Of a stretch of 25,963 nt of DNA, positions 3,986 through 22,880 are shown piece after piece. The notes below the pieces were generated by a model. That model saw nothing but the letters and a program-made list of their open reading frames with translations. It had not been told where the DNA came from and ran no database searches. The translations under genes were made by a program, and so were the position numbers. This DNA is from a virus (taxonomy: Duplodnaviria; Heunggongvirae; Uroviricota; Caudoviricetes): the IMG/VR virus record IMGVR_UViG_2563366982_000005; one strand, written 5' to 3'. Each line of letters opens with the position of its first letter. The stretch's first letter is position 1.

Positions 3986-4177
3986 TTAAAGACCTGCCGG
4001 GATTTCGTTATTATCCTGGTGAATAACTTTATCGACCGGGTAACAGTTACCGGGAATTTTCTGTTCGGTTGCTGCAGTCACACACTCCTGCATTGTCCTG
4101 TGAACACTGACTGCAATATCAACTGGCTCTCCGGAAACAAGAAAAACTGTCAGAACAAGTGCAAATGCTGTATTCAT
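3986..4177 (-). CDS. ydfD: YdfD-like small membrane (lysis-associated) protein
   Basis: 63-aa reading frame starting at internal Met (MNTAFALVLTVFLVSGEP...) with hydrophobic N-terminal segment; start ATG overlaps dicB stop (ATGA); matches my recollection of Qin YdfD sequence and position downstream of dicB. Confidence 0.6.
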   Translation of the reverse strand: MNTAFALVLTVFLVSGEPVDIAVSVHRTMQECVTAATEQKIPGNCYPVDKVIHQDNNEIPAGL

Positions 4178-4362
4178 TGTGCACATCCTTTTTGTATCGG
4201 ACGTAAACGGGCCAGCATTGAAAGAATGCATATTTTATTTAATAACTCCCGTTCGTGTTTTCTCTTGTTAATGGCATCTTCAGTAAATACAGGGTTACTG
4301 ATAGTGACACCAATTTCAAAACAACCTTCAGACGTATTAACGTTTGGTAATAACGTTTCCAT
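4174..4362 (-). CDS. dicB: Cell division inhibitor DicB
   Basis: 62-aa frame METLLPNVNTSEGCFEIGVTISNPVFTEDAINKRKHERELLNKICILSMLARLRPIQKGCAQ inside the 97-aa track ORF; closely matches recalled DicB sequence; located directly downstream of a DicF-like sequence as in the dicBF operon. Confidence 0.75.
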   Translation of the reverse strand: METLLPNVNTSEGCFEIGVTISNPVFTEDAINKRKHERELLNKICILSMLARLRPIQKGCAQ

Positions 4363-4532
4363 TATCGCGTCCTCAACAATGAATTTTGTGATGCGGTGCC
4401 TGGTGCCTCCAGGTGACGTTAACCAGTTAACAATTAACGCCGGATACAGAGAATCCACCCATAACACTGTTTTTGGTTTTAACTGTTCCGCGTGCGCTCA
4501 GCCGCATTCACCACATCACAAAATTCACTTTA

Positions 4533-4589
4533 AAAAGGGCGGCAGAGCAGTCACGGAGTAAAACTGATACCGCCAAACGTCACCAGAAA
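4533..4589 (-). ncRNA. dicF: DicF small regulatory RNA
   Basis: Minus-strand sequence UUUCUGGUGACGUUUGGCGGUAUCAGUUUUACUCCGUGACUGCUCUGCCGCCCUUUUU matches the DicF sRNA as I recall it, ending in a GC stem plus U-run intrinsic terminator; positioned between ydfC-like genes and dicB. Confidence 0.7.
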
Positions 4590-4925
4590 ATTGATAACAG
4601 AGGGCGTTGCAGCGGGGTTGTCACTTAAGCGTATGGTCAACCTGACAACCCGGTGTCCTCAACGGGGGAAGGAATAACCCCGCCATACTTACCGCCGCGC
4701 CATTTCGCGGATTGCCACAACCGGAAGCGCACGGTCGACGAAAATTTAACGACAGGCTATCTATGAACCAGCTACCTCGCCGAGCGCTTTCGCGTTATGG
4801 TCTGACTTTTCAGGGAAATATCCTTTCAGTAAACTGTCAGTGCCGGATGCTCACCCGTGTCCGGCGCACGCACTCCACCTCACCCGTGGAGAACTCCTTA
4901 ATCACCAACCCTCAGGAGGGTGAAA

Positions 4926-5200
4926 TGTCGACTGAAAATGATGAAATCATTAACTCCCTGATACGCCAGATTAATAATTTTGATAAAGCATTGCAGCATG
5001 CTGCGGCGCGTAGTGATATAACTCTTTTAGCAATTTCATTTCTTGCATCTGTTATGGATAAAAATGAAGTCGTACGACAGAGTCTTGTTGATTATATCGA
5101 CTCGCTTCAACCCGGCACTTTCAATCATGAGAGCTTCAATCATGAGAAAGAGCATGTTAAGTCTGTAATTAATTCTCTTATTTTGAATCAAAAGAATTAA
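4926..5200 (+). CDS. Hypothetical protein (91 aa), antisense to the early-left operon
   Basis: Strong SD (AGGAGGG) 5 nt before ATG at 4926; the 162-aa track ORF upstream extension is Arg-rich and looks non-coding, so the shorter start is preferred. No recognisable domain. Confidence 0.45.
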
Positions 5201-5498
5201 TGCTTTTTGTTGCAAAGTAATTTTCAAGGGGTTCTATTCGAATCCCTTTCGTTTTCATTAACAAGCCAAACCCCTTATCAATGATGTCCATTAGATCCAG
5301 GAAGTATTTTTCATGTAAATCCTGGTTATCAGAGAGCTGCTTCTCTTCGTACAGACCGATAAAGGCACGACGCACGTTACCGGATATAGTATCGATGGTT
5401 TCTTTTTCTACGGTACTCAGGTCAAGAGTCGCCAGTTGGGAACGAACTATATTCGCTGCCATTTCCTGGAATGGCATTGGTAAATCTTTAAATTCCAT
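5178..5498 (-). CDS. Hypothetical protein (106 aa)
   Basis: Track ORF; start codon abuts stop of upstream ydfC-like gene (translational coupling); AT-rich; no domain recognised. Confidence 0.5.
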   Translation of the reverse strand: MEFKDLPMPFQEMAANIVRSQLATLDLSTVEKETIDTISGNVRRAFIGLYEEKQLSDNQDLHEKYFLDLMDIIDKGFGLLMKTKGIRIEPLENYFATKSINSFDSK

Positions 5499-5500
5499 TA

Positions 5501-5740
5501 TTAGCCTCGTTGGTTAGCTATTAACGTGGGTATGTAACCATTCTGGCAATGCTTAATGCCGCTGCTTTTTTCCAGCCTGGTGATATCCTGCTCCAGAGCG
5601 GACAGATTTTCAGCCTGCTTAGTCCTGGCTTCATTGGCCCATTTCAGATCCTGCACTGCATTAATTTTCTGGCGCATCCACTCATAAAGTTCATCATCGG
5701 TATAGTCTGGCGCGATGATGACGGGTTCTCGTTTCTGCAT
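5501..5740 (-). CDS. YdfC-like small protein (79 aa)
   Basis: Track ORF in the expected position between ydfB-like and dicF in a dicBF-type operon; assignment positional. Confidence 0.5.
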   Translation of the reverse strand: MQKREPVIIAPDYTDDELYEWMRQKINAVQDLKWANEARTKQAENLSALEQDITRLEKSSGIKHCQNGYIPTLIANQRG

Positions 5741-5899: not shown

Positions 5900-6054
5900 T
5901 CACTCACCTGAGTTTCTTTCCAGCCAGCGACGGGCACCATTTTCGGTTTTAAACGTTTTGCTTTTGGTATACGTCATCGCGGTGAATGTGCCGTCCTGGT
6001 TGGGAAACACGCCGTACACCAGAGATTCGTTGTTGCCAAGCTCGATAGTATCCA
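5900..6054 (-). CDS. ydfA: YdfA-like small protein (51 aa)
   Basis: Hand-translated frame MDTIELGNNESLVYGVFPNQDGTFTAMTYTKSKTFKTENGARRWLERNSGE with GAGG SD 6 nt upstream; matches recalled YdfA; first gene after the promoter downstream of dicA-like. Confidence 0.55.
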
Positions 6055-6126
6055 TGCTGACCTCATTTCCCCTTAACGCCGGGTGGCGGAACTAAAACCT
6101 ACAGCGCCGTGCTGTTCTTGATAGAA

Positions 6127-6308: not shown

Positions 6309-6770
6309 CTACTGGTTACGTTTCTTTAGTGCCAGCATGTTCTCGAAGGCTTCCTCGTAGAGCTTGTTTAGTCCACGTAGCTGGTTAAGGAGTTTGGCTT
6401 TTTCTGACGCAGGTAGAATCTCGAAGAGGTTAAGTAACTCTGCCTGTTCTTCATTGACCAGCCTCCATCCTTTGCCTGAAAAGTTATCATCATAATTATC
6501 TGATGATCTTACATAATTCATTAAGTCTTTAAGGTCTTCTCGAATGTCCTCTGGTTTTACCTTTAACAGAGCCGCAAATTTTAGCGCAGCGTCGGTATTT
6601 ACCGGTATCTTGCCGTTCAGATACTGGCTAACGGTGCCTTGAGATTCGAATCCCAACAACTCAGCCGCCAGCTCTTGAGTCAGCTTCAGCTCTTTTTTTC
6701 TTGCATTCCATGCGGCTTTTAAATTCTTGCTCGCTTCTGGAGTTGCAATCACTTCGCGTGTTTTTTTCAT
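6309..6770 (-). CDS. dicA: DicA-like XRE-family HTH repressor (prophage immunity repressor)
   Basis: 153-aa ORF with N-terminal HTH (LTQELAAELLGFESQGTVSQYLNG) and C-terminal motif (ELLNLFEILPASEKAKLL) resembling DicA as recalled; divergent from a Cro-like gene. Confidence 0.75.
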   Translation of the reverse strand: MKKTREVIATPEASKNLKAAWNARKKELKLTQELAAELLGFESQGTVSQYLNGKIPVNTDAALKFAALLKVKPEDIREDLKDLMNYVRSSDNYDDNFSGKGWRLVNEEQAELLNLFEILPASEKAKLLNQLRGLNKLYEEAFENMLALKKRNQ

Positions 6771-20899: not shown

Positions 20900-20975
20900 G
20901 GCCCTTTAGCTCAGTGGTGAGAGCGAGCGACTCATAATCGCCAGGTCGCTGGTTCAAATCCAGCAAGGGCCACCA
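20900..20975 (+). tRNA. tRNA with CAU anticodon (Ile2-lysidine or Met type)
   Basis: 76 nt, acceptor stem GGCCCTT/AAGGGCC, anticodon loop CTCATAA, T-loop GGTTCAAATCC, 3' CCA encoded. Confidence 0.8.
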
Positions 20976-20984
20976 TATCACATA

Positions 20985-21061
20985 CCGCCATTAGCTCATC
21001 GGGATAGAGCGCCAGCCTTCGAAGCTGGTTGCGCGGGGTTCGAGTCCTCGATGGCGGTCCA
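20985..21061 (+). tRNA. tRNA-Arg (anticodon UCG)
   Basis: 77 nt, acceptor CCGCCAT/ATGGCGG, anticodon loop CTTCGAA, T-loop GGTTCGAGTCC, CCA encoded. Confidence 0.75.
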
Positions 21062-21075
21062 TTTATCGGCATTCT

Positions 21076-21152
21076 GCGTTGTTAGCTCAGCCGGACAGAG
21101 CAATTGCCTTCTAAGCAATCGGTCACTGGTTCGAATCCAGTACAACGCGCCA
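21076..21152 (+). tRNA. tRNA-Arg (anticodon UCU)
   Basis: 77 nt, acceptor GCGTTGT/ACAACGC, anticodon loop CTTCTAA, T-loop GGTTCGAATCC, CCA encoded. Confidence 0.8.
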
Positions 21153-21322
21153 GACTTATTTTTCCCGGCTCGCTTTTGCGGGCCTTTTTTGTATCCGCGC
21201 CACGCCCGGCGCATATCAACCACAGAGCCTTTCGGGGGTGAGCTTACGGAGTGGTCAGTGTGACTTTCTCTGTGGGCAGATCGCTCCCGGGCGTTGGCTC
21301 ACCCACCCAAAGGAACGTCACA

Positions 21323-21754
21323 ATGCTTGGAATCTTCAAAAAGAAAACCCGCAGAGCGTCTGCGGAAATTAAAAAGTTTGAAAAACGCGATCTGGCACAG
21401 GCAGTGATTAACGCTGCATACCTGGTGGCTTATGCCGATGGTGAATGTGAGGCTTCCGAGAAAGCGAAGATCGAACAGGTATTACGTAACCAGCCCACCT
21501 TGTCCGCGTTTACGTCAGAAATTAATGCGATTAGCGCAACCATTATCGGTCAGCTGGATACGAACTTTAAAATTGGTCGTCGTGCGGCGTTACGTGAGAT
21601 CGAGGATGTGAAACACGATACGCGTGAAGCGGAAGACGTGCTGGATGTGGCGGTGGCCATTGCCGAAGCAGACGGCGAAATAGAGCCGGAAGAGCGCAAG
21701 GTGCTGGAAGAGATTGCCGGTGTTCTGGGCCTTCGTCTGGAGAATCATCTGTGA
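21323..21754 (+). CDS. TerB-like (tellurite-resistance TerB family fold) protein
   Basis: 143-aa frame from internal ATG with AAGGAA SD inside the 167-aa track ORF; repeated A-x-x-x-V/A-A-x-A-D-G-E motifs (AAYLVAYADGECEASE; VAVAIAEADGEIEPEE) typical of TerB-like helical domains. Confidence 0.55.
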   Translation: MLGIFKKKTRRASAEIKKFEKRDLAQAVINAAYLVAYADGECEASEKAKIEQVLRNQPTLSAFTSEINAISATIIGQLDTNFKIGRRAALREIEDVKHDTREAEDVLDVAVAIAEADGEIEPEERKVLEEIAGVLGLRLENHL

Positions 21755-21762
21755 CGGTAAAA

Positions 21763-21915
21763 ATGCGTCTGGCTGTGGTTGCGCTCCTGCTGTTTCTGGT
21801 GGTGATGGTGGACTTCAGCAGCCGGATAATGTCAGTGCTGGCTGACGGTGTGCTGGTGGCGGGTGTGGTGGTTGTTGCTTTCCCGTTGCTGAAAAAGAAA
21901 GCATCAGGCGATTAG
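21763..21915 (+). CDS. Small hydrophobic peptide (50 aa), possible membrane protein
   Basis: Hand-translated MRLAVVALLLFLVVMVDFSSRIMSVLADGVLVAGVVVVAFPLLKKKASGD; two hydrophobic segments, C-terminal lysines; starts 9 nt after TerB-like stop; below track cutoff. Confidence 0.35.
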   Translation: MRLAVVALLLFLVVMVDFSSRIMSVLADGVLVAGVVVVAFPLLKKKASGD

Positions 21916-21950
21916 CAGGGTATCAGTTACCCGTTGAAATTTTTAAATAC

Positions 21951-22178
21951 CTCACAATTCAGGCGGTTGACTGTTGTCTGGTTTGCGGGGAGTTTGTTAA
22001 AAGAAACTGGCATGGTGAATCCCCCTGTGCGGAGGGGCAATCAGCAACTGGTGTTTTGTCACCGACCCTTATCCTTTCTGTGCGGGTTCAGGTGCTGATA
22101 CTGAACTCACCGGGAGGCACCCGGCACCATGCAATGGCACATAGTGCCACTCTCCAGCCCCTCTCCGGAGGGGCTTTT
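21951..22178 (+). repeat. Structured repeat element, copy 1 (conserved hairpins plus terminator)
   Basis: Shares with copy 2 the blocks CTCACAATTCAG..TTGAC, TTTGTTAAAA, GCATGGTGAATCCCCCTGNGCGGAGGGGC, CTGAACTCACCGGGAGGCACCCGGCACCATG and AGCCCCTCTCCGGAGGGGCTTT; ends in a GC hairpin followed by a T-run. Confidence 0.6.
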
Positions 22179-22369
22179 CTGTGCCGGATACATCACAGTT
22201 TCTGGAACCTTAGGTACTACAGTATCAGTCAGGGTGCTATATTTTCAGATGTGATGAAAGCCTGTCAGCAGGCAGGGCGTATCGGAAATGACCCAGTAGA
22301 GAAAACGTTGACTCAGATACCGGTGCTGAGTTACCGGGAAACCGGCATCACATGACCGCTATCCTTCCA

Positions 22370-22396
22370 GGCCCATCCGCTCCGGTGGGCCTTTTT
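22370..22396 (+). terminator. Intrinsic terminator-like hairpin between the repeat copies
   Basis: GGCCCA-(loop)-TGGGCC followed by TTTTT. Confidence 0.45.
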
Positions 22397-22433
22397 ACTG
22401 CAGAAAACAGGTTCCCCGTTAAATGCTATGTTG

Positions 22434-22665
22434 CTCACAATTCAGTAAGTTGACAGTTGCCTGTCAGACTGGGCATTTGTTAAAAAAATTTCGCATGGTG
22501 AATCCCCCTGAGCGGAGGGGCGACTGGTGACGGTATAATCTCTGATTATCAAAACGAGAATGACGCGGGTTTAGTGGCACCGGGCTGAACTCACCGGGAG
22601 GCACCCGGCACCATGTGCATGATGATACAGATACGCGGCTTTAGCCCCTCTCCGGAGGGGCTTTC
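22434..22665 (+). repeat. Structured repeat element, copy 2
   Basis: Same conserved blocks as copy 1 in the same order, with divergent spacers; terminal hairpin GCCCCTC-TCCG-GAGGGGC plus T-rich tail. Confidence 0.6.
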
Positions 22666-22880
22666 TTGTGGGCAAAAAAAGCCCGAGTGGGTTCGGGCAA
22701 CAGCATGAGATATACATTTTTATAATCGAATGGATTTTAACCAGAATTCATAAGGCTGCGCAACTGCGCGGTCTTTTTCGAATTGCGGGCTGTCGTCTCT
22801 CTTCTGCCATTGTCCTGTAACTTCCGGACTTCAGCCCGCTCCTTATTTTACTCACAATATTATCCCGGCCGGGAGGATTC

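Follow-up and report, generated by a model that had tools for sequence, protein, structure and literature searches.

The 590-bp block that lies between ydfC and the dicF leader of the prophage studied here carries two convergent, overlapping protein-coding genes, and the site it occupies is polymorphic among E. coli genomes. On balance, we favour the view that the dicBF-type early-left operon of Escherichia lambdoid prophages has a recombination hotspot of which the block represents one allele, and that the block holds two functionally separate genes, the plus-strand one being an accessory gene that would be expressed in the lysogen. As such, the finding is itself well documented and belongs to ordinary lambdoid mosaicism.

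The window, by which we mean the whole stretch of 25,963 nucleotides that was analysed, is a lambdoid prophage whose integration adjoins ompW, and its segment 3900-6300 has 100% identity with E. coli M1/5 as well as with many genomes of the ST131 type. An early-left operon of the dicBF type lies on the minus strand, in the order HTH repressor, ydfA, ydfB, ydfC, 106-aa ORF, DicF, dicB, ydfD and a large exonuclease gene. The identities of ydfD, dicB and ydfA are backed by Pfam (DicB, DUF1391, DUF1482 and HTH_3 families), and the DicF RNA, DicB and the ydfA/ydfD families follow in order downstream of the repressor, as in other dicBF operons. The main features of the operon are the following.

6309-6770, minus strand: HTH repressor in the DicA/cI position (Pfam HTH_3 and gene order)
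5900-6055, minus strand: ydfA (DUF1391; Pfam)
5501-5740, minus strand: ydfC, a +1 frameshift allele with a 79-aa ORF (called a pseudogene by PGAP; alignment with K-12)
4537-4588, minus strand: DicF sRNA (Rfam RF00039, 76.7 bits against a gathering score of 48)
4174-4362, minus strand: dicB (Pfam PF05358, E 2e-37; PGAP)

The repressor presumably holds the early-left operon off in the lysogen. DicF is known to be processed out of a polycistronic RNA initiated at dicBp, which lies upstream of ydfA (bioRxiv 10.1101/2023.04.14.536235), and this RNA therefore has to run through the cassette, antisense to the plus gene, as a previous reading of the window made from the sequence alone (hereafter the sequence-only reading) had proposed.

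Comparison with the Qin prophage of K-12 defines the cassette as a single clean block (4911-5500), bordered by the ydfC stop on one side and by the conserved dicF leader on the other. The K-12 Qin operon (ydfABC-dicF-dicB-ydfD) has the same gene order as the window, and the flanks of the cassette are 95-97.5% identical between the two, but Qin contains neither cassette gene and its 340-nt dicF leader comes directly after ydfC; the spacing between ydfC and dicF is thus 912 bp in the window versus 340 bp in K-12 MG1655 Qin. The cassette and its surroundings are laid out as follows.

4911-5500, both strands: 590-bp cassette, absent from K-12 Qin (pairwise alignment with NC_000913.3)
5178-5498, minus strand: 106-aa early-left gene of the "MEFKDLP" family (phrog_6937; PHROGs profile E 5.6e-68)
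4925-5200, plus strand: 91-aa gene, AT-rich, product predicted to be all-helical, facing against the early-left operon
4914-4920, plus strand: ribosome-binding site AGGAGGG of the 91-aa gene, 4 nt ahead of its ATG
5178-5200, both strands: 3' overlap of the two convergent genes, 23 bp (32 bp in the 109-aa allele)
5226-5248, plus strand: terminator-like hairpin with a 9-bp stem, followed by UCGUUUUCAU, 26 nt past the stop of the plus gene and inside the minus gene
4807-4835, plus strand: best candidate promoter for the plus gene, weak (TTTTCA, 17-nt spacer, TAAACT; 8/12 matches)
4589-4910, minus strand: conserved dicF leader, 97.5% identical to K-12 and untouched by the cassette

The sequence-only reading had described two genes that are extra relative to the K-12 Qin layout, and the alignment confirms it with a clean block of 590 bp missing from K-12. 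Both convergent ORFs and their 23-bp overlap are also where it had put them, as is the strong AGGAGGG sequence; the minus ORF was correctly delimited at 5178-5498, whereas the plus start lies at 4925 and not at 4926. Its boundaries have to be revised, for it let the insert begin at 4590: the alignment puts the start at 4911, and the stretch 4589-4910 is leader that K-12 also possesses. Likewise, ydfC and dicF, which it described as close neighbours in K-12, are 340 bp apart there and not immediately adjacent.

The DicF precursor has been reported to be 190 nt long (bioRxiv 10.1101/2023.04.14.536235), and would map to about 4537-4726, within the untouched leader; the RNase III site that yields it would lie within the 4589-4910 leader. 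No direct or inverted terminal repeats were found bordering the 590-bp block, so nothing points to transposition, and a transposon-like insertion was dropped on this ground. As far as the alignment goes, the block may be an insertion here or a deletion in K-12, since it fits either. Rfam, run with a permissive threshold, detected no known RNA in the cassette. The GC content over the plus-gene region (4900-5300) falls to 35-38%, versus 46-57% in the flanks.

The sequence-only reading had also supposed that the 106-aa ORF is translationally coupled to ydfC. This holds for the allele in the window and not for the normal 72-aa ydfC alleles, whose stop lies 22 nt upstream of the 106-aa gene ATG. 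In comparison with K-12 and most other alleles, the ydfC of the window bears a +1 frameshift at a run of T (5566-5571), which gives it a new C-terminus and a frame that runs to 2 nt before the 106-aa ATG. The coupling is thus specific to the window allele, because the frameshift lengthens the ydfC frame.

Both ORFs of the cassette are coding, and both are called by PGAP as hypothetical proteins (WP_000102678.1 and WP_000394526.1). For the plus ORF the most informative comparison is with a diverged allele (locus L006), which differs from the window by 43 substitutions in 253 nt (17%), with no indels and no stops. The annotated plus frame is the sole one of the six frames that is free of stops in both alleles, and its Nei-Gojobori dN/dS is 0.29 versus 0.5-1.6 in the other five frames, a selection test that draws mainly on this one diverged lineage. 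Moreover, in the part of the plus ORF that does not overlap the minus gene, the substitutions seen in closer alleles are synonymous (3/3 in L007 and 1/1 in L008), and the ORF is intact in about 58 of the 59 IMG/VR loci that carry a cassette of the 91-aa type. Most of the 198 genomes with the plus gene have near-identical copies (at least 99% identity in 164), so that much of the apparent conservation of the gene is recent shared ancestry. A plus ORF that is not conserved would be at odds with the sequence-only reading; here the frame is kept at 17% divergence, with the dN/dS given above. Judged from these comparisons, the plus ORF looks like a real gene, more than a chance frame, and is under purifying selection. 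A longer version of the ORF (162 aa from a TTG at 4712; 145-214 aa in the PGAP annotation of some genomes) was rejected, as the frame upstream differs among alleles through indels and the RBS is conserved, as is the ATG at 4925. Within the gene, an in-frame 15-bp tandem repeat at 5120-5149 encodes ESFNH twice, and an IMG/VR locus (L018) has a third in-frame copy of this repeat with the frame kept.

Homology and structure searches, which the sequence-only reading had recommended for both proteins, were performed and gave no function from profile, sequence or fold. Profile scans of the two proteins against Pfam, NCBIfam and PADLOC gave no match, and when PHROGs was included and four other alleles were added, only PHROG families of unknown function were retrieved, phrog_6937 and phrog_18692 among them. 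In PADLOC-DB 2.0 the best scores (E 0.014 and 0.045) fell on short stretches, and the other alleles had no matches. Sequence and profile searches of the PDB with both proteins were empty. A phmmer search with the 91-aa protein against 1.84 billion representatives returned 7 matches, namely near-identical E. coli fragments and a spurious one, while word-indexed searches found relatives of both proteins in Escherichia and Salmonella only; scanning one genome per species for the minus gene gave E. albertii only. The AlphaFold2 models are of modest confidence, all-helical for the plus protein (pLDDT 66) and helical for the minus protein (pLDDT 70), and with both of them Foldseek retrieved nothing from the PDB at E <1. 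Against BFVD, a library of viral proteins, the sole Foldseek match was an uncharacterised 52-aa protein of phage phi191, aligned to the N-terminal domain. A literature search by the accessions of the two proteins found nothing.

The plus protein nevertheless has a full-length homologue in the protein of the 92-aa allele (28% identity, E 1e-5), which itself scores 8e-63 to phrog_18692. The direct match of the 91-aa protein to the phrog_18692 profile is weak (E 0.022), with end-to-end coverage. On these scores, the 91-aa protein is a distant relative of phrog_18692. No membrane segment is predicted in it, and sequence inspection revealed no hydrophobic stretch of membrane length.

The minus protein matches phrog_6937 over its full length (residues 1-106 on profile positions 1-106 of 124) and has 234 relatives of several C-terminal types. 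About 53 N-terminal residues are conserved in the family; after that the sequences part, and the C-terminus is a mosaic. The N-terminal ~53 codons (5339-5498) are common to phrog_1363, 2151, 9419 and 33007, whose C-termini differ, and in phage phi191 this domain exists as a stand-alone protein of 52 aa. The N-terminal domain may be the functional core, and the variable tails may be by-products of cassette exchange. The 106-aa gene is best read as an ordinary mosaic early-left gene.

The distribution of the cassette was assessed in a set of 5426 complete E. coli genomes, with the following counts.

K-12-type empty junction: 2697/5426 genomes
minus gene, any part: 930/5426 genomes
whole 590-bp block: 198/5426 genomes
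91-aa plus gene: 198/5426 genomes
92-aa plus gene: 127/5426 genomes
73-aa plus gene: 88/5426 genomes

The cassette of the window is a minority allele. The sequence-only reading had assumed that the two genes are not standard components of dicBF operons, and indeed the junction is empty in about half of the genomes and the plus gene is confined to 198 of them. It had further treated the gene pair as one acquired insert. Both genes do lie in the block, but they do not form one unit, for several hundred genomes, including O157:H7, have the minus gene in a 124-aa version without a plus gene, and with the dicF leader directly next to it. At least five types of cassette were seen at the slot.

minus gene of 106/109 aa with a plus gene of 91 aa
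minus gene of 124 aa with a plus gene of 73 aa (phrog_7249)
minus gene of 133 aa with a plus gene of 92 aa
minus gene of 122 aa with a plus gene of 100 aa (phrog_8894)
minus gene of 135 aa with a plus gene of 77 aa

So many alternatives at one place indicate a recombination hotspot and not a one-off insertion. The 91-, 92- and 73-aa genes have a common start, CTCAGGAGG(G/A)TGAAATG, which includes the RBS and the ATG, and diverge directly after the ATG; the 77-aa allele lies downstream of the same leader sequence, and the 100-aa gene has a leader of its own. As divergence begins after the ATG of the plus gene and within the minus family, the boundaries of the exchanged modules are the plus start codon and a point inside the minus gene. 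Furthermore, the partners are not fixed. The type-A body of the minus gene is accompanied by the 91-aa gene, by the unrelated 73-aa gene or by none, and the homologous 91-aa and 92-aa plus proteins face unrelated minus C-termini. Such pairing, which is not one-to-one, favours independent accessory genes at a hotspot over an obligate pair of proteins. The cassette is also found with differing repressor types, and is thus independent of immunity.

The type-C cassette of one locus (L092, 2780-3560) opposes a 122-aa minus gene to the 100-aa plus gene (phrog_8894) with an overlap of 77 bp; in this locus the DicF seed sequence is missing and the terminator hairpin is still present. In another (L094; NZ_CP195449.1, 167725-174974), the same prophage segment as in the window, from the exonuclease to replication protein P, cassette included, lies on a plasmid record of 195 kb, which may be a phage-plasmid hybrid, a plasmid insertion or an assembly artefact.

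Signals for transcription of the plus gene are of unequal quality. The hairpin at 5226-5248 has a folding energy of -14 kcal/mol (z -3.35) and a U-rich tail, and may act as its terminator. Upstream of the gene, no convincing sigma-70 promoter was found on the plus strand: the best candidate has 8 of 12 matches, and it is equally conserved in loci without the plus gene. A leader running from the putative start at about 4842 would be highly structured (-37.8 kcal/mol, z -4.0), with the RBS partly buried.

The position of the plus gene has a close parallel in the Rac prophage. There sieB, on the plus strand, is likewise reverse-oriented within the early-left operon, and its 3' end overlaps by 4 bp that of a small convergent early gene on the minus strand, ydaF (DUF1391); the sRNA kilS and then kilR come next. 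Thus sieB sits, in the sense of the operon, just upstream of kilS/kilR, as the plus gene does of DicF/dicB, in both cases an sRNA and a division inhibitor. Since the architecture is the same, the plus gene occupies what may be called the sieB slot. For P22, Ranade and Poteete (1993) reportedly found the sas RNA to be a processing product of the early-left transcript. The antisense RNA that switches the translation of sieB in P22 comes from the operon transcript (PMC12197685). The plus protein is not itself a SieB homologue, a possibility that was rejected because it has no match to PF14163 (1.5e-31 for Rac SieB) and reaches only E 1.8 in BLASTP against SieB; moreover, SieB has 162 aa versus 91 aa for the plus protein. 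The Rac region upstream of sieB was compared with the dicF leader, and no homology was found. The region upstream of Rac kilS/kilR (L089, 2750-2954) is 77% identical to 4378-4575 of the window, which comprises the DicF terminator and the sequence upstream of dicB; the sRNA and division-inhibitor modules of Rac and of Qin-type prophages are thus related beyond gene order.

The plus gene also resembles lambdoid morons (HK97 gp15 and lambda bor/lom, for instance), which are accessory genes added among conserved ones. Related prophages have the plus gene or lack it at one fixed site, its GC content differs from that of the flanks, it comes with translation signals of its own and with a terminator-like hairpin, and it is oriented against the lytic genes. 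Genes antisense to lytic operons are typical accessory loci (PMC7067206). What is not standard for morons is that several unrelated genes reuse one conserved RBS and ATG at the slot. Taken from sequence features, the plus gene is probably a lysogen-expressed accessory gene of this kind.

Three other explanations of the block have to be set against this one. That the plus ORF is a chance or decaying frame, unexpressed, with the minus gene alone being real, strikes us as highly improbable. It would fit with the lack of detectable homologues beyond Escherichia and Salmonella prophages (the 7 matches among 1.84 billion representatives), the low-confidence model and the missing promoter, but it leaves unaccounted for the only open frame of six, indel-free at 17% divergence and with a dN/dS of 0.29, the strong and conserved RBS, the full-length homologue with 28% identity at the same site in another cassette and the end-to-end match to phrog_18692. 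The two genes might instead be a cognate pair, either a toxin with its antidote or an exclusion protein with its escape function as in P22 SieB/Esc/sas, in which the variable C-terminus of the minus protein would neutralise the lysogen-expressed plus protein on induction and the 3' overlap would be the switch. The P22 sieB/sas antisense switch is a precedent for this (PMC12197685), the 91-aa gene never occurs without the minus gene (198 genomes have the gene and 198 the whole block), a convergent, overlapping minus gene of the MEFKDLP family accompanies every plus allele, and the minus protein has a conserved N-terminus and a variable C-terminus. Physical adjacency alone, however, explains the co-occurrence, and the free assortment described above, with the type-A C-terminal body next to the unrelated 73-aa gene or partnerless in several hundred genomes and with homologous 91- and 92-aa proteins matched to unrelated C-termini, makes a cognate pair quite unlikely. 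Neither a toxin-antitoxin nor a defence family was matched, and the arrangement is not that of a type II toxin-antitoxin system, as the genes are convergent and Pfam, NCBIfam and PADLOC gave no toxin or antitoxin family.

The sequence-only reading had taken the cassette to be mainly regulatory, the transcription of the plus strand setting the amount of DicF/DicB by colliding or pairing with the early-left transcript. Such an effect is plausible in itself: DicF and dicB depend on the dicBp transcript that crosses the cassette, the two genes converge and overlap, and the 5' region of the plus gene has the structured dicF leader as its antisense strand. As the main role of the cassette we regard it as unlikely, for a pure antisense element needs neither a protein frame under purifying selection nor a strong RBS, and unrelated protein genes occupy the same slot; besides, no promoter was found for the plus strand, the region of DicF processing (4537-4726) is untouched, and the operon is already repressed in lysogens.

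If the block is indeed a hotspot allele with two separate genes, the following course of events can be proposed. The minus gene would be read from the repressor-controlled promoter along with ydfABC, DicF and dicB. In the lysogen, where the operon is repressed, the plus gene would be transcribed from a promoter of its own, on the antisense strand of the dicF leader, and its mRNA would be translated by means of the strong RBS and terminated at the 5226-5248 hairpin. The product would most likely target the host or incoming phages, exclusion and defence being examples; a part in phage exclusion is possible. Derepression of the operon should then silence the plus gene through convergent transcription and the pairing of sense with antisense RNA, both of which may also trim the read-through towards DicF and DicB.

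A bolder version of the hotspot can be imagined, which we regard as quite unlikely. The slot, with the MEFKDLP-family gene on one side and the dicF leader on the other, would be a dedicated exchange point for accessory genes. Unrelated lysogeny genes would share a leader, an RBS and an ATG there, and together with the early-left transcript each would make a self/non-self switch, on in the lysogen and silenced by antisense or neutralised by its partner on induction. Should this be true, it would amount to a new, cassette-based generalisation of the sieB/esc/sas logic, and the slot could encode several small anti-phage proteins.

Provided that lysogens express its plus genes, the slot would be, even on the simpler reading of a hotspot with independent genes, a compact reservoir of small, uncharacterised prophage proteins. 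The plus proteins fall into at least five families, of 73-100 aa; they occur in pathogenic E. coli lineages that are common, ST131-like strains among them, and could affect phage resistance or host physiology. DicF and DicB are toxic inhibitors of cell division, and since the cassette lies on the sole route to them, prophages with and without the cassette offer a natural test of tuning by convergent transcription.

Two further observations concern small RNAs elsewhere in the window. Directly 3' of DicF, and reaching into the start of dicB, a match to STnc100 covers 4330-4539 on the minus strand; it is below threshold, at 38.7 bits where the gathering score is 47 (E 1.6e-6). Farther along, the segments 20900-21149, 21981-22186, 22464-22673 and 22676-22728 contain three tRNA genes, two sRNAs of the STnc100 family and one match to AsxR (anti-stx2), a group (20900-22728) that looks like the late regulatory region of an Stx phage.
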